64,000 nucleotides of DNA from Candidatus Fervidifonticultor secundus (GTDB lineage: Bacteria > Sysuimicrobiota > Sysuimicrobiia > Sysuimicrobiales > Humicultoraceae). Numbering within the stretch: position 1 is the first letter of the stretch; every line of letters begins with the position of its first letter. A program made the position numbers and the translations under genes. The stretch lies in assembly GCA_031459385.1 (NCBI GenBank), contig JAVKIP010000010.1, forward strand, positions 36,120 to 100,119, written 5' to 3'. This document shows, one piece after another, positions 5,530-23,154 of the stretch. The notes beneath the pieces were generated by a model. The model was not told where the DNA came from and searched no databases. It worked only from the letters and a program-made list of their open reading frames with translations.

Positions 5530-6264
5530 CTACTCGAGCAGCGCCTGCACCGCTGGCGCCCCGCGAGGCGCCACGAGCCGTGCCAGCCAGATGCTGACCT
5601 CGTAGAGCAGGTAGGTGGGCACTGCCATCAGCAGCTGCGAGACCACGTCAGTCCCGGGGGTGAGCAGCGCGGACGCCACCACGATGGCCAGCAACGCGTA
5701 GCGGCGGCCTCCCGCCAGCGCTGCTGGGCTTACCAGGCCCAGCCGGGCCAGGAACACGATGACGACAGGCATCTGGAAGACGACGCCGAACGCCACGATG
5801 AAGGCCATCATGAACGACAGGGCGGGGCCGATGGTGAGCAGGGGCTGCAGCGTGGCCGTCTGGTAGCTCAGCAGCACGCGCGCGGCCACCGGCATGATGA
5901 CGAACAGCCCGAACGCAGCCCCGAGTACGAAAAGCACCAGCGACGGCGGCAGCAGGCTCATCACGACCTTGCGCTCGCTGTGGGTGAGCCCCACAGCCAC
6001 GAACATCCACAGCTGGTAGAGGATGACCGGCAGGCCGAGGAAGACCCCGATGAGCAGGGCGATCTTCAACCGGATGAACAGGGCCTCAGGAGGTGCCGTG
6101 AAGTAGACCTGGTTGACCTGGAGCTGGCGCAGCAGGAAGTCCAGCACGCGGTCGACGAACGCCCAGCCCAGCACCGTACCGACTCCCAGCGCCCCAAACG
6201 CCTTGAGGAGCCGCGAGCGCAGCTCCTCCAGGTGTTCCACGATGGTCATCGGGCGGTCTTCCAT
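5530..6264 (-). CDS. tatC: Twin-arginine translocase subunit TatC
   Basis: MTIVEHLEELRSRL, YQLWMFV..GL..E, FQMP, LTPG.D..SQ...LYE. Confidence 0.95.
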   Translation of the reverse strand: MEDRPMTIVEHLEELRSRLLKAFGALGVGTVLGWAFVDRVLDFLLRQLQVNQVYFTAPPEALFIRLKIALLIGVFLGLPVILYQLWMFVAVGLTHSERKVVMSLLPPSLVLFVLGAAFGLFVIMPVAARVLLSYQTATLQPLLTIGPALSFMMAFIVAFGVVFQMPVVIVFLARLGLVSPAALAGGRRYALLAIVVASALLTPGTDVVSQLLMAVPTYLLYEVSIWLARLVAPRGAPAVQALLE

Positions 6265-6322
6265 GCCCACCTGCGTGCCACGGCGTGCGCGGCCACGAGC
6301 CGCGCACGCCCCGCGCTGCGGC

Positions 6323-6526
6323 TCAGGCGCCGGGCTTGGTCGGCTGCGACTCCTTCTCGTCGTCCTCGCTCAGGGCCTTGCGGAACTCCTTGATGGTCTT
6401 CCCGGCCGCCGCGCCCAGCCCGGCCAGGCGGCTGGCCCCGAACAGCAGCAGCAGAATCAGCAGGATCACCAGCAGCTCCATGGGGCCGACGTTGCCGATC
6501 ACTGCGGGCGCCACATGTGGGTTCAT
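6323..6526 (-). CDS. tatA: Twin-arginine translocase subunit TatA/E
   Basis: [21 protein letters not shown]...[17 protein letters not shown]. Confidence 0.93.
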
Positions 6527-6547
6527 CGTCGTCTCCCTCCGGTGCCC

Positions 6548-6553
6548 ATTATA
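6548..6553 (-). promoter_or_regulatory. Putative sigma70 -10 element (TATAAT) for tatAC
   Basis: Perfect TATAAT on the minus strand about 20 nt upstream of the tatA ATG, in very GC-rich DNA. Confidence 0.55.
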
Positions 6554-6815
6554 GACCTGGAGTCCCGCGGGGGCCACCGGCGGTCCGCGGGGCGCTAGCG
6601 GCGCGCCTCAGGCGCAGCAGGCGTGCCAGGGTACCCGCCGCGCGCGCGAGGCGGCCGAGGTTGGCCTGCGCCGGCAGGCTGCGCGCCCGGTGTCGCAACT
6701 CGTCGACGCCGGCCTCGATGCGCGCGTGCAGCAGGGCGATCTCGGCAGCGATCTCGGCCAGCGAGCGCCCGTCTGCCGGCGTCAGCTTTCGCGGTGAAAG
6801 AGGTTCCTCAGCCAC
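6549..6815 (-). CDS. Hypothetical protein, DUF3618-like
   Basis: [24 protein letters not shown] amphipathic helix; overlaps the holin-like gene. Confidence 0.5.
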
Positions 6816-7276: not shown

Positions 7277-7675
7277 TTACGGTACGACCTTCAGGTCGCC
7301 GACCATTTCGGTATGGTACGTGCACTGCATCTTGTACGTCCCTGGCCGGTCGATCTTGACCTTGAACCGGCTCTCCTGGCCGGCGTTCACGGCCACGTCG
7401 GAAGTGATGTCCCCGCCCGGGGCGCCCTGAATGACCAGGTTGTGCACGGTGGCACCCTGGTTGGGCACGACGAACTCGTACTCGGCGCCCGCCTTGATCT
7501 CGACGGTCGCCGGCTCGTACAGATTGTCCTTCATCACGATGGTGATCGTCCCGCCAGCTACCGGTGTCCCGGCGGTCGGCGCCGGCTGCGCCGGCTGCTG
7601 AGGTGCCCGGCCGCCACAACCCGCCGCCACTGCCGCGATCACGACCACGGCTGCCCACGCAAGTGCGGTCCGCAT
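7277..7675 (-). CDS. Cupredoxin (type 1 copper) lipoprotein
   Basis: Lipobox VAAGC; ligands HN ... CTYHTEM (C-x2-H-x2-M). Confidence 0.85.
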   Translation of the reverse strand: MRTALAWAAVVVIAAVAAGCGGRAPQQPAQPAPTAGTPVAGGTITIVMKDNLYEPATVEIKAGAEYEFVVPNQGATVHNLVIQGAPGGDITSDVAVNAGQESRFKVKIDRPGTYKMQCTYHTEMVGDLKVVP

Positions 7676-7841
7676 TCGTCGTCCCCTTTCGCTGGATTGT
7701 CGACCGGCGCGGTCTCTGACCCCGTGCGGCCACGTGCTAGGGTACAACCTTCGCGCGGGCGGGGCAAGGGCACGGCACCTGGCGATGGGGCACCGCCGCG
7801 CGCCGGGCCCGTGCGCGGGCGGAGCATCGGGTGGGCCGGAG

Positions 7842-14200: not shown

Positions 14201-14617
14201 TCAACGGTCCACCCTGATGGTCATCGCCATGCCGGCCTCGCGGTGGCCGGGGATGTTGCAGTAGGCGGTGTGCGCTCCCGGCGGCAGCTCGAAGATCGCG
14301 GTCCTGGTCTCCCCTGGCGGCACGCCGTCGATGGCCGCGCCCGGTATCGCGTCGACGACCAGGTTGTGCTCCACCAGCCCCTCGTTCCTGACCCGCACGG
14401 CGATCCGCCCGGCCCGCACCACGACCGAGGGCGGCGCAAACGCCCACTCGCGCGCGACCACCTCCACGGTCGCCGCCGGGGAGCGCTCGGGCGACCCGCT
14501 CCGCGGACCGCAGGCGCCGCCAACCAGTGCCAGCACCAGCAGCGCCGCGCGGTAGGCCCGCAGGCTCCGCCGGTGCCCTGACCCCCTCTCTCCCGGCGAG
14601 AGAAGCCGCCGTCTCAC
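14201..14617 (-). CDS. Cupredoxin (type 1 copper) lipoprotein
   Basis: Lipobox-like GGAC; HNL ... YCNIPGHREAGM (C-x4-H-x4-M). Confidence 0.85.
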   Translation of the reverse strand: MRRRLLSPGERGSGHRRSLRAYRAALLVLALVGGACGPRSGSPERSPAATVEVVAREWAFAPPSVVVRAGRIAVRVRNEGLVEHNLVVDAIPGAAIDGVPPGETRTAIFELPPGAHTAYCNIPGHREAGMAMTIRVDR

Positions 14618-14627
14618 GCCCTAGCCT

Positions 14628-14732
14628 TCAGGCTTCAGCGATGAGGCCGAACGACGCGACGAACGCCAGCAGCAGGAAGAAGAAGACGTAGAAGAGCAGG
14701 TAGGCCAGCCAGACGCGCAGCGGGCGCTTCAT
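14628..14732 (-). CDS. 34-aa single-TM protein
   Basis: MKRPLRVWLAYLLFYVFFFLLLAFVASFGLIAEA. ATGA overlap with the upstream gene, GGAGG RBS, high GC3. Confidence 0.7.
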   Translation of the reverse strand: MKRPLRVWLAYLLFYVFFFLLLAFVASFGLIAEA

Positions 14733-15217
14733 GCCCCTCCCTCCTCCGCAGGCTGGGCGGCGGCCGCCGGCCGCCGCGCGGGCCCCGTGCCGCTGGCTGC
14801 CGGCCCCAGGGCCCGGAGGCGCTCCACCATGGCCGCGATGTCGGCGAGAAACGCCTCCCGGTCGTGGAGCCCATGGGCCAGCATCTGCAGGCGCTCCGGC
14901 GGCACCCTGCGTCGCTGCAGCCGCCGCTGCAACTGGTCCACGCGCTCGCGCATCAGGTAGTTGCCCTCGCGGTTCAGGCAGTCGCCGTAGGGGCACCCGA
15001 CCACGAAGACGCCGTCGGCGCCGGCCTTGAGCGCGTCCTCCAGCCAGCCTGGCCGGATGAAGCCCGAGCACGGGATGCGGATGAGGACCACGGACGGGTG
15101 GGCGAGCAGCCGGCCGGCCGCATCCGCCAGGTCGGTCGTGGCCACCGCCCAGTCGCATACGAAGCCCACGATCCGGGGAGCCCAGGCGCCGTGCGCGGTC
15201 GATGCCTGCGCCGTCAT
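14729..15217 (-). CDS. MvhD/FlpD-like [2Fe-2S] protein
   Basis: GFVCDW, RIPCSG, GADGV.VVGC..GDC...EGN; all four Cys ligands present. Confidence 0.88.
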   Translation of the reverse strand: MTAQASTAHGAWAPRIVGFVCDWAVATTDLADAAGRLLAHPSVVLIRIPCSGFIRPGWLEDALKAGADGVFVVGCPYGDCLNREGNYLMRERVDQLQRRLQRRRVPPERLQMLAHGLHDREAFLADIAAMVERLRALGPAASGTGPARRPAAAAQPAEEGGA

Positions 15218-16389
15218 GCCCGCACCGCCGCTGCCACCTGCACCGCCTCCTGCACGCGCCGCGTCACGTCGGCTTCCAGCAGACCCGGGAGTTCCAGCGC
15301 CTCGAACGGGCACGCGCCGATGCAGATGCCGCACTCGACGCACCGCGAGTCGATGACCACCGCCAGCAGCTTGCGGCTCGCCGCAGCCCGCGACAGGCCG
15401 GGGTGGGGCGACGGGACCATGACGATGGCGTTGTAGGGGCAGTCGTAGTAGCACAACTCGCAGCCCGTGCAGTTGCCGTCGATGACCTGTGCCACACCCG
15501 CGTGCCGCACGCCCATCTCCCGCGGCGTCTCGCGGCTGAGATAGGGGATGACGAACCCCGCCCCCAGCGTCACTGCCACCAGGGCCACCACCAGACCGGG
15601 CGGCACGAAGCCGGCGAGCCAGAACGGCAGCAGGAAGAAGACGTCCAGCGGCATCGCCTGCGGGGCGGTTCCGGGCCGGGCCGGGACCCCGCCGACCGCC
15701 GGGATCACCGCCGCCAGCACCGTTACCAGCCCCAGGCTGACCAGCACCCAGGTGGCAGGCGGCCAGACCTTCGGATGGCGCAGCCGCACGTAGTGCCACC
15801 ACAGCAGCACGTAGAGCAGCGACGCCGGTCCGACGTGCAGCAACAGAATGCGGGGCAGGGTGCCCTCCGACAGCCCGGCGCCGCCCACCAGCAGGCCGGC
15901 CAGCGCGTCGCCGACGGCCGGGATGGCCCGCAGCAGTCGGTCGAACAGGCCCAGCACGGCCAGCGCCCGCTCGTCCCATACCAGGATGTAGCCGGTGGCG
16001 CCCACGAAGCCGCCGAAGATGAGCATGAACATCCCCGAGATCCACGGGGAGTCGCGCGAGAACAGGTACCGGTCGGTGAACCAGTTCCGGAAGAGGTGCA
16101 GCAGGGCTGCCACGATGAACGCATCGGCCGCGTACCGGTGGATGCCCCGGATCAACCCCCCGTACGGCACCTGCTCGGTCAGGTAGACCACCGACGGGTG
16201 CGCGCCGCCGAGGCTCGGCACGTAGTAGAAGAAGATGAAGATCCCGGAGAGGACCAGGATGAACAGGAACAGGTTCGTGAGCCCGCCGGTGTAGTAGAGC
16301 GGATTCCAGTCCGTGGGGTAGATGCGGTTGATGCCCACGTCCAGGCGCAGGGTGAACCGTTGCAGCGCGGTCAGGGCTTTCCGGTACAC
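15214..16389 (-). CDS. Cytochrome b fused to a C-terminal 2x[4Fe-4S] ferredoxin domain
   Basis: Two H-x13-H pairs (HRYAADAFIVAALLH; HVGPASLLYVLLWWH), then CTGCELCYYDCP and CVECGICIGACP. Confidence 0.9.
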   Translation of the reverse strand: MYRKALTALQRFTLRLDVGINRIYPTDWNPLYYTGGLTNLFLFILVLSGIFIFFYYVPSLGGAHPSVVYLTEQVPYGGLIRGIHRYAADAFIVAALLHLFRNWFTDRYLFSRDSPWISGMFMLIFGGFVGATGYILVWDERALAVLGLFDRLLRAIPAVGDALAGLLVGGAGLSEGTLPRILLLHVGPASLLYVLLWWHYVRLRHPKVWPPATWVLVSLGLVTVLAAVIPAVGGVPARPGTAPQAMPLDVFFLLPFWLAGFVPPGLVVALVAVTLGAGFVIPYLSRETPREMGVRHAGVAQVIDGNCTGCELCYYDCPYNAIVMVPSPHPGLSRAAASRKLLAVVIDSRCVECGICIGACPFEALELPGLLEADVTRRVQEAVQVAAAVRA

Positions 16390-16399
16390 AGGGCCCCCC

Positions 16400-16669
16400 T
16401 CACGGCACGGGCTTGACCCACCGCCCGCGCAGGTCGTCCTCCGCCTCGGCGCGGCGCGGCCCGATCGTCCCCAGCTTGCGGAGCAGCAGCAGGATCAGGC
16501 CGTAGACGATGAACAGCACACCCAGGGCGGCGCCGCCGAGCTGCCAGAACACGCGGCGCTCGGCGCTGCCCAGGGCCTCGCCCAGCACGATGAGCGCCGC
16601 GCAGGCCGCACCCACCACCGCGAGCCCCAGGACCCCGCTGGTGTACCTGCGGCTGCTGTCCTCCATCAT
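16400..16669 (-). CDS. Small two-TM membrane protein
   Basis: MMEDSSRRYTSGVLGLAVVG...; translationally coupled within the bc cluster. Confidence 0.7.
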   Translation of the reverse strand: MMEDSSRRYTSGVLGLAVVGAACAALIVLGEALGSAERRVFWQLGGAALGVLFIVYGLILLLLRKLGTIGPRRAEAEDDLRGRWVKPVP

Positions 16670-16947
16670 GCCGATCCGGCACCCCCCTGCGGGCGATCCG
16701 CCCGCCGGTCCAACCAGCGGTCGAACAGCGGCATCGGCCGACGCGTGCGGCCCGCGGTCCGGTCGGCCGCGTAGATGACGAACGCCAGGTACCCCAGGCT
16801 GACCCAGAACGCCGCCATCCAGCCCAGGGCCTCGACCGGCCCGTACAGCCGCTGGCCTTCCAGGGCACTGCGCACCCCCTGCCACAGGCGCGAGAAGCTC
16901 TCCACCGCCACCGCGAACGCCGCCACGGAGCCGCCGAGCCGCAGCAT
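16666..16947 (-). CDS. Small membrane protein
   Basis: 93 aa, hydrophobic (LGWMAAFWVSLGYLAFVIY); starts 3 nt after the cytochrome b stop. Confidence 0.7.
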   Translation of the reverse strand: MLRLGGSVAAFAVAVESFSRLWQGVRSALEGQRLYGPVEALGWMAAFWVSLGYLAFVIYAADRTAGRTRRPMPLFDRWLDRRADRPQGGAGSA

Positions 16948-16950
16948 CGC

Positions 16951-18138
16951 CTAGTGCGCCTCCGCCCGCGCGACCCCGGCGGCTGCCACCGCGCGGCCGG
17001 AGGCGCCGGCCGCTGCCTGCGCCGCGGCGCGCGCCTGCTGCCGGCGGTACCGGAGCTCCCAGACGAACGCCAGCGTCAGCACGACGGTCGTCACCAGCAA
17101 CACCAGCGGCGGCTCGCGCTCGATCACAGCGATGTTGAACAGGATCAACGCCGTGAAGACCAGGAAGTAGACCAGCGCCAGCAGACCCACCACGAAGAAG
17201 AACGGACGCTCCAGGGGCCGGCGGCCCTTGCTGCGGTCGAGAAACGGCACCAGCATTCCGAAGCCGATCAGCAGCCCGGGCCCCAGGCCCGCCCACAGCG
17301 GCGGCGTGTACTTCACGTACTGGTAGAGCGCCAGGAAGTACCAGTCCGAGAGGATGGGCAGCGGAGTGCGGTTGGGATCGGCGCGGCGGCCGAGCTCCGC
17401 CGGCAGCGCCCAGGAGATGTAGACCAGCATGACCGAGAACAGCAGGATCGGAAACAGCGACATGTTCAGGCGCTGCCGCCGCGTGCGGTAGTAGAACACC
17501 TCGATGACGATGAGCAGCACCAGCGAGATCCCGAAGTGCAGGGCGTAGAAGCGCGTGAGGGTGGCGGCGCCGATGGCCGGCCCGCCCAGGAACAGGTAGG
17601 CGATCATGGAGCCGACCTGGAACCGCTCGCCGATGACCGGGATCTTGGCAGTGAGCTCGTCGAAGTACACCGGCACGGTCAGCACCGTCTTGGCCGCCCA
17701 GAACGCCCGCTGGTTCCAGATGAGCAGGTAGCCGGTGATCCCGGAGATCATGGCCAGCACGAGCCCCGCGAACCCCCAGATCCAGCTTAGCTCGCCCGGC
17801 CGTTTGTACTCGCCCAGGAAGTACATGCGGTAGATGCGGAGGATGATGCACAGGATCACGCCGTCGGCCGCGTACTTGTGGACGCCGCGGATCAGCCAGC
17901 CCAGCGGCACCGCGTGCTGGATGTGCAGGATGGAGTTGTACGCGCCCTCGGGCGTCGGCTCGTACCAGAGCATGAGCAGGATGCCGCTGACCACGGTGAC
18001 GAGCCAGAAGTAGTACAGCATCGGGCCCAGCAGGTAGAACGGGTTCGCCTGCCGGGTCACCATCGTCTCGTCGAACAGGTCCAGCCGGCTCCGGCGGTCC
18101 CGGTACCACTCGCGCAGGTTGTCCCACACCCTGGCCAT
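16951..18138 (-). CDS. qcrB: Cytochrome b of a Rieske/cyt b complex, atypical
   Basis: GWLIRGVH, TGYLL.W.Q.AFWA, IPVIG, LTRFYALH, PEWY-equivalent TP..ILSDWYFL. Both bH-side His are absent. Confidence 0.9.
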   Translation of the reverse strand: MARVWDNLREWYRDRRSRLDLFDETMVTRQANPFYLLGPMLYYFWLVTVVSGILLMLWYEPTPEGAYNSILHIQHAVPLGWLIRGVHKYAADGVILCIILRIYRMYFLGEYKRPGELSWIWGFAGLVLAMISGITGYLLIWNQRAFWAAKTVLTVPVYFDELTAKIPVIGERFQVGSMIAYLFLGGPAIGAATLTRFYALHFGISLVLLIVIEVFYYRTRRQRLNMSLFPILLFSVMLVYISWALPAELGRRADPNRTPLPILSDWYFLALYQYVKYTPPLWAGLGPGLLIGFGMLVPFLDRSKGRRPLERPFFFVVGLLALVYFLVFTALILFNIAVIEREPPLVLLVTTVVLTLAFVWELRYRRQQARAAAQAAAGASGRAVAAAGVARAEAH

Positions 18139-18183
18139 CGGTCCTCGCTACGGTGTCTGGTGGGGCGCTGCAGGACCCCGCCC

Positions 18184-18846
18184 CTAGGCGATCCCGCCCG
18201 GCTCGACGTGGCGCACCAGCACCTGGTCGCCCTCGACGGTGTAGAAGAACGTCCGCGGGGGCCGCGGGGCTGGTCCCGACAGCACCCGCCCGGGCTGCTC
18301 GGGATCGGCCGGGTCGTAGATGCTCAGGTGGCACGGGCATCCCATGAGGGCATGCTGGCGGCTCTTGGGCGGGACGTAGCCACCGTAGCCCGCGGTGATC
18401 TCGCGCCAGTCGGCGACGAAGTTGTAGATGCACCCCAGGTGCGGGCAGATCCGGGAGAAGACGATGATCTCGCTCTCGGTGAACTGCGGCGTCTCCCCGA
18501 TGGCGCGCACCCAGTCCCAGGGCATGCGGATCTTGGTCGGCAGGCGGATCGCCACGCCCGGCACCGACGCGCTCCGGAAGCCCTCGGGCGTGTACTGGGG
18601 GTACTTCTGGGTGTAGACAAAGTACTTGAAGTCCCAGGGCTTCTGCAGTTCGGCCAGCGTCGCCGCCACGACCGGCTCGCCCGCCGGCGGATCGTGCTTG
18701 GTCGGCTGCAGCACGTTGAAGGGCTCCACGTTCGGCTTGAGGAAGCGCAAAAGCGGCGAACCGAACGCGACGAGTCCTCCCACCAGCGGCAGCGCCGCAG
18801 CGGCGCGGAGGAAGCGGCGGCGATCCAGGACGCGGTCGTGGGCCAT
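18184..18846 (-). CDS. qcrA: Rieske [2Fe-2S] subunit
   Basis: Tat motif DRRRFLR, CPHLGC, CPCHLSIY, GPAPRP. Confidence 0.93.
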   Translation of the reverse strand: MAHDRVLDRRRFLRAAAALPLVGGLVAFGSPLLRFLKPNVEPFNVLQPTKHDPPAGEPVVAATLAELQKPWDFKYFVYTQKYPQYTPEGFRSASVPGVAIRLPTKIRMPWDWVRAIGETPQFTESEIIVFSRICPHLGCIYNFVADWREITAGYGGYVPPKSRQHALMGCPCHLSIYDPADPEQPGRVLSGPAPRPPRTFFYTVEGDQVLVRHVEPGGIA

Positions 18847-18922
18847 CAGCAAGCTCCCACATCCAGCATACACGGCCGCCACGCGCCCGGGGAAGTGGAC
18901 CCGACCGGACCGGCCATCGGTC

Positions 18923-19858
18923 TCACGGCTGCTGCCCGCGCGGCGGCGCGTAGTCGTACATGAAAGTCCGCACGTAGTCCACCAGTGCCCAGATCTCGTC
19001 CTCCTCGAGCTTGCCCCGGTACGCGGGCATCAGGCCGCGGCCGTCCGCGATACGCTGGAAGAGCTCGGTGGGCTTGCGGGCCGCCAGGAAGTTGGCGTCG
19101 GTGAAGATGCCGGCCCCGACGCGATCCCGCCAGCCCCACACGCCGGCCGCCATCTCCTCGGACAGCCGGCCGCCCCGGCCGTCGCCGGCGGGGCCGTGGC
19201 AGTCGGCGCACGTGGCGACCCGCCCGCCGCCGATGTCCAGCGCCCGGGTCTGATAGATCTCCCTACCGCGCGCGATGGTCTGCGGCGTGGTGGCGAATGT
19301 CCAGGCGTAGAACAGCACGTCCCAGATCTGCTCGTCGGTGAGCGTCGCCGGCCCCTTGTTGGCGCCGTAGGCCGGCTTCCGGCCGAACGCCGGCATGGCC
19401 GTGTGCGGGCGGCCGAGCTTGATCGTCTCGAAGAGCACCCATGGCGCGTTCAGGCGCATCGCGATCTGGTTGTGGAAGTTGGCGGGACGGGACGGGATCC
19501 TCTCACCCTTGATCGCCAAGCCCCAGAGCCTGAAGAAATCGGTGAGGGGGTTCTTCTGCGGCGACGTCAGGCCGCTGGCGGCCGGACCGTCGCCGAACCC
19601 TTCGTCGCCGTGACAGACCGCACAGGTGCGCTCGAACGTGGCCCGCCCGCGCACCGCGGAGGGTTTGAAGCCGGGGGCGCCGTCCACCAGTGGCCGCAGG
19701 ACCGCCTGTTGCCCCAGCCCCGCACCAACCGTCGCCGCGGCGCCGCGCACGCGCACGGTCGGCTGGCATCCCGCGGCGAACACAGCGACAGCGACGATCG
19801 CGGGGAGCACGCGCAGCGCGATCGTCAGCGAGCGGGCGGCTTCCATCGTCAACGGCAT
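18923..19858 (-). CDS. Diheme c-type cytochrome, probable lipoprotein
   Basis: CAVCH...MPAF and CADCH...MPAY; lipobox FAAGC. Start approximate. Confidence 0.9.
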   Translation of the reverse strand: MPLTMEAARSLTIALRVLPAIVAVAVFAAGCQPTVRVRGAAATVGAGLGQQAVLRPLVDGAPGFKPSAVRGRATFERTCAVCHGDEGFGDGPAASGLTSPQKNPLTDFFRLWGLAIKGERIPSRPANFHNQIAMRLNAPWVLFETIKLGRPHTAMPAFGRKPAYGANKGPATLTDEQIWDVLFYAWTFATTPQTIARGREIYQTRALDIGGGRVATCADCHGPAGDGRGGRLSEEMAAGVWGWRDRVGAGIFTDANFLAARKPTELFQRIADGRGLMPAYRGKLEEDEIWALVDYVRTFMYDYAPPRGQQP

Positions 19859-19937
19859 GAACGATTCCACGCCCTGCAGGCAACTCCTCCCCTGGCCCGC
19901 GCGGGGTCCCTGCCACGGTGTCGAGCGGCGGCTCCGA

Positions 19938-20891
19938 TCAGATCCGTCGCCACAGCGTCCATGCGAGCCCGACGGCCAGGAGGCCCGCCAGGGTGCCGGC
20001 CGCGGTCGGTGCCGGCCATCGCCGCACGGGCGGGACGCCCGCGACGGTCAGCACCAGGTCGCCGGGGCGCAGGGCGCGCGCCCAGGCCCGCGCGTACCGC
20101 CTCCCCTCGCTCTCGAGTGGGGGCGCCGGCTGGAACTGCGGGGACCGAATCTCGGCCGGCGCGCCGGCGAACACCACCGCGCGGTCCACCGGCAGCCGGA
20201 GCGGACGATCGAGGACGGCCGCGCCCGCACCCGCCACGGCGTAACTGAACGAGAGCTGGTCGGCGCCGGGGCGCACGACGATCCGGTCGCGGATCTCCCC
20301 GCGCTCCACGCGCGGCTGGTGGAAGCCGGCGTGGTAGCGCACGTACCGCGCTCCCTGCGGCAGGGGGATGCCGACATCGCCGCGGTATGTGCGTACCGTC
20401 GTGTTGCGCAGGTGCCAGACCTCGAAGACGCGCACGTAGCCCGCGTGCACCTCGACCACCATGCCCACCAGCGCCACGCGCAGCGGGACGCCGGATGCCA
20501 CGTCGTACACCAGCAGCTCCACGCGGACCGGCCCACCCGCCACCACGACGTGCGCCGCGTAGACGACGCCGGCGTGGCTCGTCTGGACCAGATAGCGGCC
20601 GTCAGCCAGGCCGCGGAACGCGAAGCGCCCCGCGCCGTCGGTTCGGACCCGACCCACGTCCCGAGATCCGATGGGGCCCACGGACACGAGGAGGACGGCC
20701 TGGCCCGCGGCAGACCGGCCGGTCGTGCCGTTGCGGACGACGCCGGCGATCGCCCCGGCGCTGGCCTCCGGCGCAGGCGACGACCCGGAGGGCAGCGCGC
20801 CGGCTGCCGGTACGGCGGACGCAAAGATCGCAGGCAGCCAGAGCGCGACCAGTGCAGCGGCCAGGGGCGCGCGGCGCGCCGCTCTCCTCAC
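19938..20891 (-). CDS. Exported, membrane-anchored protein with carboxypeptidase-regulatory-like (Ig) domain
   Basis: Signal peptide, GAIAGVVRNGTTG...TDGAGRFAFRGL..GRY, C-terminal TM. Confidence 0.65.
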   Translation of the reverse strand: MRRAARRAPLAAALVALWLPAIFASAVPAAGALPSGSSPAPEASAGAIAGVVRNGTTGRSAAGQAVLLVSVGPIGSRDVGRVRTDGAGRFAFRGLADGRYLVQTSHAGVVYAAHVVVAGGPVRVELLVYDVASGVPLRVALVGMVVEVHAGYVRVFEVWHLRNTTVRTYRGDVGIPLPQGARYVRYHAGFHQPRVERGEIRDRIVVRPGADQLSFSYAVAGAGAAVLDRPLRLPVDRAVVFAGAPAEIRSPQFQPAPPLESEGRRYARAWARALRPGDLVLTVAGVPPVRRWPAPTAAGTLAGLLAVGLAWTLWRRI

Positions 20892-21163
20892 GCGCCGCCT
20901 CCGTCCAGGTGCCGCGCCGCGCGGGCGGCCGCATCTTCGAGCGTCGCCCGCTGTGCGTGGTAGTCAGCGTCGCTCAGCTTGCCCGTGGCCCAGTCGAGCT
21001 CGAGGTCCTGGAGCGCGCGCAGCGCCACGGCGTGCGCGGCCTCCAGGGCCGCGCGCGCGTCGCCAGCCTCCACGGGCGCGCGGCGCCAGGTGGGGGCCAG
21101 CAGGTACCACGCTAGCGCCATGGCGGCGACGAGGAAGGCAGCCGCGGACGCGTCCTCGATCAC
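20888..21163 (-). CDS. CcmI N-terminal-like small protein
   Basis: TM followed by ALQDLELDWATGKLSDADY; coupled to the ccmF stop. Confidence 0.65.
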   Translation of the reverse strand: MIEDASAAAFLVAAMALAWYLLAPTWRRAPVEAGDARAALEAAHAVALRALQDLELDWATGKLSDADYHAQRATLEDAAARAARHLDGGGA

Positions 21164-23154
21164 GGCGCACCCGCCGCCGGCCAGGCTGCGGGCTCCCCCA
21201 GGGGCAGCGCGGCCAGGTGCCGCCGGCGGCGCTCGGGCAGCGCTGCGAGCAGCGCGCCGAGGGCCAGGATCCCGCCACCGGCCCACAGCCAGGACACCAG
21301 CGGATGGATCAGCACGCGCAGCGTCGCACGGCCCTGGGGCGTCCAGTCGGCCAGGATCACGTAGAGGTCTTCACGCGGGGAGGCCCGGATCGCCACCTCG
21401 TGCATCGGCTGCCCCTGGGTCCGGTAGAACAGGCGCCGGGGCCGTAGGTGGCCGAGCGCCCGCTCGCCCCGCCACACCGCCACCGTGGCCTCGACGACGT
21501 CGATCCCCGGCCGCTCGGTTGCGTCCAGCCCCCGGAACTCGAGCGTGTACCCGCCGAACTGGAACCGTTCGCCCGCCCCCACGGTCGCCTGACTCTGCGT
21601 GGCGAAGGCGCTGCTCCCGGCGACGCCCGCCAGCATCAGGAGCACGCCGAGGTGCACCGTGTACCCCCCGTAGCGGCGGCGGTTCCGCCAGACGAGCTGT
21701 CCCAGCGCCCGGGCCACGGGCTCGCCGCGCGCGACGCGCACCCGCATACCGCGCACCGCCTCCAGCCCGATCGTTGCCACGACGAACAGCACCAGGACGA
21801 AGACCAGCAGCGCGCCCGCGGTCCGCACACCCGCAGCGGCAAGGACCGCGCCGCCCAGAAGGGCCGCCGCCGCCGGCCAGGCGAAGTTGCGCGCCAGCTG
21901 CTCGGGCGACGCCCGCCGCCAGGGCAGCAGCGGCCCCACCCCCATGAGCACCAGGAGGCCCACGGCGATGGGCGTCATCACACGGTTGAAGTACGGCGGC
22001 CCGACGTTGCTCTTCACGCCTTCGATCGCCTCGGTCAGCGCGGGGAAGATCGTCCCCACGAAGACCACGGCGGTGGCCACCATGAAGAGCAGGTTGTTGG
22101 CCAGGAAGGCGGTCTCACGGCTCACCACCGCCTCGATGGCCGCCTCGCGCCGCAGCTGGTCCCACCGCCACGCCAGCAGGCCGAAGCCAACCAGCAGCAC
22201 CACCGCCAGGAAGCTCAGGAACGCGGGGCCCACGGCCGACAGCGCGAACGAGTGCACCGACGCGATGATGCCGCTGCGCACCAGGAACGTCCCGAAGAGC
22301 GTCAACCCGAAGGCCAGGATGACGAGCGCCACGTTCCACGTCGCCAGCATGCCGCGGCGCTCCTGGATCTGGATCGAGTGGAGGAACGCGGTCGCCACCA
22401 GCCACGGCATCAGCGCGGCGTTCTCCACGGGATCCCAGGCCCAGTAGCCGCCCCAGCCCAGGACCACGTACGACCACTTGGCGCCGAAGAGCAGGCCGAG
22501 CGAGAGGCACGTCCAGGCCACCAGCACCCAGCGCCGCGCCAGCGCCACCCAGGTTTCGTCGAGCCGGCCGGTCACCAGCGCCGCGATCGCGATCGCAAAG
22601 GGCACGCTCATGCCCACGAACCCCAGGTAGAGCATCGGCGGGTGCGCGGCCATCCACGGGTTGCGCAGCAGCGGGTTCAAGCCCTGCCCGTCGGGCGGCG
22701 GGGGCACCAGGCGTGCGAACGGGTCGCTGGCCCATGCCAGCATGCCCGAGAAGAACAGCGCCACAGCCAGGAGCACCACCGTCGCCGGCGCCTGCAGCGC
22801 CGGATGCCCCCGGAGCGCGCGGATGCCGGCTACCAGATAGCCAGCCAGGATCAGCGCCCACAGCAGCAGGGCGCCGTCGTGCCCGCCCCAGAATGCGGTG
22901 AGCGTGTAGAACAGCGGCTGGGCTGACTCGCTGGCGAGCGCCACGAACCGCACCGAGAAGTCGCGCTGGAGGAGCGCCGTCCACAACGCCGCCGCCGCCA
23001 GCGCCACCAGCAGCGCCCACGCGGTTGCCGCACGGCGCCCGGCCTCCAGCAGGCCGCCGTGCTGACGGCGGATGCCGAGCACGGTGACCACGATGCCGTA
23101 GGCCGCGGTGACCACGGCCGCCAGGACCGCGAACCGGCCCACCTCACCCGCCAT
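21160..23154 (-). CDS. ccmF: Cytochrome c heme lyase CcmF
   Basis: WGGHDG, GLNPLL, HPP.LY.G, WGGYWAWDPVENA, SVHSF. Confidence 0.97.
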   Translation of the reverse strand: MAGEVGRFAVLAAVVTAAYGIVVTVLGIRRQHGGLLEAGRRAATAWALLVALAAAALWTALLQRDFSVRFVALASESAQPLFYTLTAFWGGHDGALLLWALILAGYLVAGIRALRGHPALQAPATVVLLAVALFFSGMLAWASDPFARLVPPPPDGQGLNPLLRNPWMAAHPPMLYLGFVGMSVPFAIAIAALVTGRLDETWVALARRWVLVAWTCLSLGLLFGAKWSYVVLGWGGYWAWDPVENAALMPWLVATAFLHSIQIQERRGMLATWNVALVILAFGLTLFGTFLVRSGIIASVHSFALSAVGPAFLSFLAVVLLVGFGLLAWRWDQLRREAAIEAVVSRETAFLANNLLFMVATAVVFVGTIFPALTEAIEGVKSNVGPPYFNRVMTPIAVGLLVLMGVGPLLPWRRASPEQLARNFAWPAAAALLGGAVLAAAGVRTAGALLVFVLVLFVVATIGLEAVRGMRVRVARGEPVARALGQLVWRNRRRYGGYTVHLGVLLMLAGVAGSSAFATQSQATVGAGERFQFGGYTLEFRGLDATERPGIDVVEATVAVWRGERALGHLRPRRLFYRTQGQPMHEVAIRASPREDLYVILADWTPQGRATLRVLIHPLVSWLWAGGGILALGALLAALPERRRRHLAALPLGEPAAWPAAGAP

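Follow-up and report, generated by a model that had tools for sequence, protein, structure and literature searches.

A conserved Rieske operon of Candidatus Fervidifonticultor secundus pairs a cytochrome b devoid of haem bH ligands with a ferredoxin-fused cytochrome b

The stretch of DNA analysed here, referred to as the window, comprises 64,000 nucleotides from Candidatus Fervidifonticultor secundus (assembly GCA_031459385.1, contig JAVKIP010000010.1, positions 36,120 to 100,119). At window positions 14201-19870, on the minus strand (-), it contains an operon encoding a cytochrome c, a Rieske protein and two different cytochromes b, the second of which is fused to a ferredoxin domain and followed by an MvhD/FlpD-like protein. 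The first gene of this module (18923..19870) encodes a dihaem cytochrome c of 315 amino acids (aa), with two CxxCH motifs and matches to the Pfam families Cytochrome_CBB3 and Cytochrom_C over two stretches. Next comes the Rieske [2Fe-2S] protein (18184..18882), which carries a twin-arginine leader (RRRFLR), gave a weak match to the Pfam Rieske profile (E 0.0047), and has both boxes of the cluster, CxHxGC ... CxCH, as CPHLGC and CPCHLS. It is followed by an eight-helix cytochrome b, here called cytb1 (16951..18138), and by the 391-aa fusion protein cytb2-Fd (15214..16389); the genes of two small membrane proteins, sm93 (93 aa, 16666..16947), which has no Pfam family, and sm88 (88 aa, 16400..16666), lie between the two cytochromes b, overlap by 1 base, and have orthologs in the same place in the relatives, detected with phmmer in the case of sm93. 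The MvhD/FlpD-like [2Fe-2S] protein (162 aa, 14729..15217), the 34-aa single-helix membrane open reading frame (ORF) tm34 (14628..14732) and a membrane-anchored cupredoxin (14201..14617) complete the row. The genes of the operon are joined by ATGA or 1-nt overlaps, the ATGA type being found between the stop of cytb2-Fd and the start of MvhD and again between the stop of MvhD and the start of tm34. The cytochrome c maturation genes ccmC, ccmE and ccmF are located immediately upstream.

The protein cytb1 is recognised by PF00033 and PF00032 and shows the motif S264-D-W-Y267 at the quinol-oxidation site (Qo). Its alignment to cytochrome b6 structures identified H87 and H201 as the ligands of haem bL and revealed that the ligands of haem bH are missing: Arg101 replaces the helix-B histidine, and the helix-D position is not a histidine either. 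In this respect the protein agrees with an initial annotation of this DNA, which had described it as bH-less. We examined 121 orthologues, corresponding to 120 database clusters plus the window. The bL histidine pair and the Arg at the helix-B bH position were present in 121/121, a non-His residue occupied the helix-D bH position in 120/121, and SDWY was found in 120/121; indeed, the Qo loop is the most conserved region of the protein. Glu213 was likewise kept in 121/121 sequences, and in 52/52 of a second set, and it might form with Arg101 a buried salt bridge filling the former haem bH pocket. Some genomes of the same phylum carry a conventional cluster of a small Rieske protein, a PEWY cytochrome b with four His and a multihaem cytochrome c (L104:5530-8336 and L105:5036-7855), among them genomes of the genus g4 that are devoid of the operon with two cytochromes b. 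As this conventional cytochrome b has four His and PEWY, the losses of cytb1 are not a habit of the whole lineage.

In cytb2-Fd a six-helix cytochrome b (Pfam Cytochrome_B, E 1.1e-26) precedes a 2x[4Fe-4S] ferredoxin domain matched by several Fer4 families, and the C-terminal half of the cytochrome b was not recognised by PF00032. The initial annotation had assigned to this protein all four haem histidines, two CxxCxxCxxxCP motifs and a degenerate Qo motif. The alignment to the b6 structures located the histidines at H84, H98, H185 and H199, and they are kept in 21/21 sequences; thus, the four-His pattern of the bc1/b6f type is absent from the Qo-bearing cytb1 and present in cytb2. The two ferredoxin motifs are C307-x2-C310-x2-C313-x3-C317-P and C350-x2-C353-x2-C356-x3-C360-P, and all eight Cys are unchanged throughout an alignment of 50 sequences. 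As for the Qo motif, MPLDVFFL (residues 246-253) does lie in the ef loop, at the canonical PEWY place, but its degeneracy is a local feature: among the 21 sequences the window's family and one other carry PLDVFF, having drifted from the xDWF of the clade, and the remaining families show VDWF[FY]. The D-E loop of cytb2 (HYVRLRHPKVWPP) does not contain the [IL]PFxP-type motif found in the phylum's canonical cytochrome b, a motif that was seen in neither cytb1 nor cytb2.

The AlphaFold2 model of cytb2-Fd (predicted local distance difference test 81.7, predicted template modelling score 0.81) consists of six long helices and then a ferredoxin fold; it superposes on helices A-F of the bc1 cytochromes b, which were also the top matches of Foldseek. 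The tally of lysine plus arginine was 11 in the four predicted cytoplasmic segments versus 4 in the three periplasmic ones. The initial annotation would have been contradicted by a ferredoxin domain on the outer face of the membrane; the model helices and this tally place it on the cytoplasmic side, after transmembrane helix 6 of a protein with its N terminus inside. Since the MvhD protein, in addition, has no leader peptide, the iron-sulfur (FeS) arm is cytoplasmic and stands beside haem bH.

The MvhD-like protein matched PF02662 (E 9.1e-30, profile positions 1-123) and, over its full length, the solved MvhD 5odc_D (E 1.1e-22), with the cluster cysteines C21, C50, C75 and C80 aligned; these four Cys are conserved across 21 sequences. 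The coupling of its gene to cytb2-Fd had been pointed out before, and the overlap of its ATG with the stop of the fusion bears this out. The same annotation had called it an orphan, which has to be corrected, as in most distant relatives MvhD is fused to this same type of cytochrome b. A search of 1.84 billion representatives with the fusion yielded 4124 relatives, of which 219 reached E 1e-30 or better, and the best 150 were mostly 480-790 aa in size. When 20 representatives were scanned with Pfam, 13 combined cytochrome b, Fer4 and FlpD domains in a single chain, two of them with an additional C-terminal cytochrome c domain. Such triple fusions come from metagenome-assembled genomes labelled Deltaproteobacteria, Nitrospirota, Nitrospinota, Hydrothermarchaeota and Steroidobacteraceae, among others. 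Because of them MvhD belongs with the cytb2 module and, judging from domain architecture, is a "Rosetta-stone" partner of cytb2-type cytochromes b. The usual link of MvhD to an Mvh-type hydrogenase or HdrA is not encountered here: as previously noticed, none of the 52 window ORFs scanned encodes a hydrogenase or an HdrA-like protein, and the partner is a cytochrome b. In QmoC and HdrE-type subunits, a NarI-type dihaem membrane cytochrome b is coupled to cytoplasmic FeS and MvhD/HdrA-type modules. The principle is similar, but cytb2 matches PF00033 (bc-type) only and hence is not a member of that group.

The co-occurrence of the two cytochromes b, a failure of which would have contradicted the initial annotation, was analysed in a phylum-level set of 94 genomes, all in one order and distributed in seven families, and the outcome favoured that annotation. 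The fusion was found in 81/94 and the cytb1 orthologue in 82/94; both were present in 80, neither in 11, and 3 genomes were discordant (G014, G064 and G080), in each of which the missing gene would fall past the end of the contig. This tally takes in the unpublished genomes G010 and G019, with both genes each; leaving them out, the numbers become 78, 11 and 3 of 92. Among the 11 genomes with neither gene are the whole of genus g4 (8 genomes) and the only g2 genome. As related genomes do not count as independent cases, the co-losses correspond to perhaps two to four events. In the 20 relatives' loci that we inspected, the order cytochrome c-Rieske-cytb1-sm93-sm88-cytb2-Fd-MvhD was kept in 19/19 of those reaching far enough; MvhD follows the fusion in 20/20 and tm34 was detected by phmmer in 18/20, one of the two misses being a contig end. 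The C-terminal FVASFGLIAEA of tm34 is conserved among relatives, and this protein is a probable small subunit of the complex. The cupredoxin, a candidate periplasmic electron carrier in view of its matches to Copper-bind and Cupredoxin_1 and the His/Cys/His/Met type-1 copper pattern of its translation, was adjacent in just 6/20 loci and therefore does not belong to the constant core of the module.

The same arrangement extends beyond the phylum. In a metagenome scan for the short split form, with loci of 33-73% GC, a recognisable fusion ORF was present in 75 of 80 loci. All 49 loci with at least 2.6 kb of upstream sequence had a cytb1-like gene upstream, with a Rieske gene before it (phmmer), and all 68 with downstream sequence had MvhD after the fusion, in many cases with tm34 next. 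The helix-B bH position was R or K in 51/51 of the cytb1 homologues, and TPLPILSDWYFL was almost invariant across the loci. Exact-sequence look-ups identified the mid-GC and low-GC clusters as sequences labelled Candidatus Obscuribacter, Melainabacteria or Cyanobacteriota, with which a protein-atlas match agrees. At six Melainabacteria-type loci the module comes after cbb3-type oxidase genes. Together, these data support the earlier proposal that the two cytochromes b are complementary, cytb1 with Qo and bL and without bH, cytb2 with four His and a drifted ef-loop motif, and indicate that this complementarity is deeply conserved.

In a maximum-likelihood tree built from 46 cytochrome b cores, cytb1 stood at the end of a long branch (1.18 changes per column) and was joined with support 100/99 to the phylum's canonical cytochrome b, the one with four His and PEWY, whereas cytb2 was placed with other short FeS fusions; the triple fusions and the ferredoxin-flavin-NAD fusions form a clade of their own (99/100). 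The tree rejects a recent tandem duplication as the origin of cytb1 and cytb2. As their placements differ, the complex would be a chimera of a Rieske-type cytochrome b that lost bH and a recruited FeS-wired one. The long branch and the loss of two haem ligands could also be taken to mean that cytb1 is a decayed, redox-inactive scaffold, cytb2 alone being the enzyme's real cytochrome b. We regard this as very improbable, since it fits poorly with the bL histidines and SDWY of the orthologues and with a TPLPILSDWYFL that is near-invariant over the whole GC range of the metagenome loci; moreover, a Rieske protein requires a Qo partner, and the motif that drifts is that of cytb2.

On these grounds, and in line with a possibility raised by the initial annotation, we consider it rather probable that the products of the nine genes from the dihaem cytochrome c to tm34 and the cupredoxin form one membrane complex with a heterodimeric cytochrome b core, with a path running from Qo and bL of cytb1 to bL and bH of cytb2, the two [4Fe-4S] clusters and the [2Fe-2S] cluster. 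In such a complex the only working Qo site would be the one in cytb1. This subunit would hold a single haem, bL, and the Arg101/Glu213 pair would close the pocket that bH had occupied. The second subunit, cytb2, would contribute bL and bH, and the cytoplasmic wire made of its two [4Fe-4S] clusters and the [2Fe-2S] cluster of MvhD would replace the canonical quinone-reduction site (Qi). The first electron of the quinol would go from Qo to the Rieske protein, cytochrome c and the oxidase; the second would pass from bL of cytb1 to bL and bH of cytb2, the FeS clusters, MvhD and a cytoplasmic acceptor, crossing the membrane on its way. A homodimer of the bL-only cytb1 would offer this low-potential electron no exit, so that the haem pair of cytb2 would be its only conserved taker.

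The direction of the flow could be either outward from the quinone pool or into it, and we lean slightly towards electron export from quinol to the cytoplasm because the D-E loop of cytb2 does not contain the canonical Qi-region motif. In its complete form, which we put forward tentatively, the complex would be an obligate heterodimeric complex III without a Q cycle, bifurcating at Qo and sending the low-potential electron through the bL-bL step and the FeS wire to a soluble NAD(P)+-linked or ferredoxin/thiol-type carrier. It is also conceivable, if somewhat doubtful, that in the same heterodimer the FeS arm serves as an input, electrons from a ferredoxin/hydrogenase-type donor reaching bH of cytb2 through MvhD and the two [4Fe-4S] clusters and, joined by the Qo electrons arriving through bL-bL, reducing quinone at a retained site on the N side. 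Such a built-in ferredoxin:quinone reductase resembles the ferredoxin-dependent cyclic route proposed for b6f. The source genome has six 2-oxoacid:ferredoxin oxidoreductase-type loci and three NiFe-hydrogenase loci, the latter on contigs other than that of the window, so that low-potential carriers need a way into respiration; in solved complexes, as indicated by the names of the matched chains, MvhD is an electron adapter from hydrogenase to an FeS protein; the transfer from FeS to bH would cross no membrane dielectric; and the architecture is found in Melainabacteria-labelled lineages, sisters of the b6f-bearing Cyanobacteria. On the other hand, an input would require a working quinone-reduction site in cytb2, with the D-E loop and the missing PF00032 match described above, and in no lineage examined was a donor gene linked to the operon. 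What keeps the input among the possibilities is energetic: an electron at bH, with the membrane potential already paid, would hardly be able to reduce a low-potential ferredoxin.

This energetic consideration, which would restrict the possible acceptors of an exporting complex or favour the opposite direction, is one of several points that weigh against our proposal. No gene for a cytoplasmic partner was found downstream of MvhD in the window or in the 6 Melainabacteria-type loci scanned. The ef-loop Asp of the clade is kept by cytb2 in 20/21 relatives, and for this reason the protein may retain a periplasmic-side site of its own. Three metagenome loci of 65-67% GC (L107, L108 and L109) encode cytb1 homologues with Arg/Lys in helix B that yet keep the helix-D His, and these may represent an intermediate in the loss of haem bH. 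The triple fusions are pertinent here too. After a scan that gave 547 confirmed stretches, of which 76 loci were kept, phmmer detected neither a Rieske gene nor a separate cytb1-type gene near them, and COX1 adjoined the fusion in 7/7 loci scanned with Pfam. Since they stand without Rieske or cytb1 and beside haem-copper oxidase genes, a cytb2 module can work alone. Complementary haem loss was also sought in tandem triple-fusion paralogues, and this candidate was discarded: none of the 9 pairs showed it, and 18/18 proteins keep the four His.

These observations bear on a further explanation, namely that the operon encodes two separate complexes that are co-transcribed: a simple quinol:cytochrome c reductase (Rieske/cytb1)2 without a Q cycle, and a (cytb2Fd-MvhD-tm34)2 module that independently connects the cytoplasm with the periplasm or with quinone, presumably in the manner of its oxidase-linked relatives. 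In agreement with it, the triple-fusion relatives are found beside COX1 genes and without a nearby Rieske/cytb1 (see also PMC4122944), the two cytochromes b descend from different lineages, and all the solved cytochrome b cores matched come from complexes described as homodimeric in what was accessible of PMC7908018. We nevertheless find two complexes unlikely, as they fit the conservation data poorly. The bL-only homodimer would leave the second quinol electron without an exit; the genes were never found apart where the assembly permits the test, and they were lost jointly in g4 (0/8 for each gene) and in g2; and a Qo loop that is the most conserved part of cytb1 points to a bifurcating site in need of a low-potential outlet.

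The fusion type itself is in print since 2014, when Kao and Hunte (Genome Biol Evol) named the "PDWF-FeS clade", composed, in the portion of the paper at hand, of a bc-type cytochrome b, a 4Fe-4S domain and MvhD, with no Rieske protein in the clusters (PMC4122944). As in that clade, PF00033 and Fer4 families occur in one ORF of the window, cytb2 groups in the tree with FeS-fused forms, and its sister families keep xDWF. The arrangement is nonetheless different. MvhD is a separate gene in the window and part of one polypeptide in the clade; the clade has no Rieske protein, whereas one is encoded upstream in the window operon and in every relatives' or metagenome locus long enough to show it; and the clade members stand beside haem-copper oxidase genes, whereas the split module is found within a Rieske/cytochrome c operon, always with a bH-less cytochrome b. 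The accessible part of that account does not mention such a pairing (PMC4122944). Nor did we find any description of a Rieske-linked pair of bH-less and FeS-fused cytochromes b in the literature, subscription journals and supplements aside.

With the canonical bc1, b6f and menaquinol:cytochrome c reductases the operon shares the Rieske protein, the cytochrome c, the cytochrome b folds and, in cytb1, a conserved Qo loop. Those enzymes, however, are homodimers with two haems per cytochrome b and a Qi site, in contrast to the two different cytochromes b, three predicted b haems and FeS arm at the place of Qi in the window. In an asymmetric bc1 engineered through B-B and BS-B fusions, Czapla et al. 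(2013) reported that the inter-monomer bL-bL transfer is catalytically competent on the millisecond scale, according to the text available (PMC4330944). The layout of the natural pair would make that crossing obligatory. The engineered forms are laboratory mutants of a homodimer with Qi, whereas the window holds a natural and conserved gene pair with a predicted FeS exit.

The transfer of the low-potential quinol electron from a bc-type cytochrome b to a cytoplasmic acceptor such as NAD(P)+ has been proposed elsewhere. For the eNOR operon of Ferrigenium straubiae, cytochrome b-[Fe-S](-FAD-NADH) proteins are proposed, in the accessible text, to couple to NAD+ reduction (bioRxiv 10.64898/2026.01.22.701106), and anammox Rieske/cytochrome b complexes are proposed to make NAD(P)H, again according to the portion available (PMC12954380). 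The eNOR-linked proteins have their own flavin/NAD module and no Rieske partner, whereas no NAD-binding module is linked in the window; for the anammox complexes, the available portion mentions neither FeS-fused nor bH-less cytochromes b (PMC12954380).

Engineered mutants have long supplied the arguments on whether electrons cross between the monomers of complex III in living cells. The operon seems to be a natural version of the "cross-inactivated" enzyme, in which one monomer has Qo and only the other has bH. A cytoplasmic FeS exit or entry would be a new coupling of the quinone pool to soluble redox carriers, relevant to the production or consumption of reductant where neither complex I nor Rnf takes part. 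If the complex were indeed an obligate heterodimer without a Q cycle, a whole candidate phylum would have it as its one Rieske/cytochrome b enzyme, respiring Melainabacteria would have it as their "complex III", and cross-dimer electron transfer would turn from a laboratory curiosity into a physiological necessity. In the accessible text of a published genome survey, Melainabacteria genes joined to complex IV are annotated simply as b6f subunits (PMC6349859). Because the Melainabacteria-labelled module beside cbb3-type oxidase genes received that annotation, arguments on how b6f and aerobic respiration arose in the lineage of the Cyanobacteria may be founded on an enzyme that has been wrongly described.

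Some further features of the triple fusions deserve mention. Their Qo-region consensus is P..DWFYLF, with the Asp invariant. The idea that orf1 of the sNOR cluster of nitrifiers is a fusion of this type found no confirmation in the accessible text and was given up. At L036:7974-13579 and L040:6932-11855, two different triple fusions flank a NuoF-like gene (Complex1_51K + NADH_4Fe-4S) within a haem-copper oxidase cluster, which hints at an NAD(H) link of the oxidase-associated relatives; tandem pairs occur at seven other loci. At L071:2524-4476 and L079:5966-7954 a fusion of cytochrome b, Fer2, FAD-binding and NAD-binding domains is located beside a triple fusion and COX1 genes, an architecture described, in the available texts, for Alicycliphilus (Kao and Hunte, PMC4122944) and Ferrigenium (bioRxiv 10.64898/2026.01.22.701106). 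The long triple fusions end, at about columns 560-757 of the alignment, in a membrane helix and a domain of about 170 aa with the motifs DG..F.YE and PG.H and no Pfam match; in the split operon, tm34 stands after MvhD, where the long forms have this extension.

With respect to the redox gene content of the source genome, its only PF00033 genes are the operon's two cytochromes b and one more in a syntenic copy of the region, truncated, on contig C29. This second copy (C29:1-7300) comprises ccmC-ccmE-ccmF, a 317-aa protein, cytochrome c, Rieske and a cytb1 with 84% identity to that of the window, which ends at the contig end. It may come from a related population instead of being a true paralogue, since the contamination of the genome is estimated at 5.5%. 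The genome has one haem-copper oxidase and five loci matching the CCG domain, four of them fully and one weakly; it gave no match to RuBisCO, and in the ORF listing no Mvh-type arrangement was evident at the hydrogenase loci on contigs C13, C14 and C23. At C14:9453-11318 a polyferredoxin of 621 aa includes a FlpD/MvhD-like domain (E 9.1e-8). Its gene is placed between two molybdopterin-oxidoreductase/4Fe-4S/NrfD-type gene sets and adjoins a TorD-like ORF; here the MvhD fold serves a second time in the genome, in an unrelated setting.

Four DNA runs from a single study, with the label hot springs metagenome, contain 89-92% of the words sampled from window 14201-19870; these runs may be the source sample and hence do not count as independent evidence of the habitat. 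In the interval from ccmF to the cytochrome c gene, at 19938-21286 (-), two proteins are encoded, one of 317 aa that matches CarboxypepD_reg weakly and one of 132 aa; both hold the same position in many relatives' loci and may be assembly factors or additional subunits of the complex. About 7 kb downstream of the operon the window contains a second cupredoxin-like protein (Cupredoxin_1, E 4e-15; 7277-7747 (-)) and the genes tatA/tatC (5530-6577 (-)).

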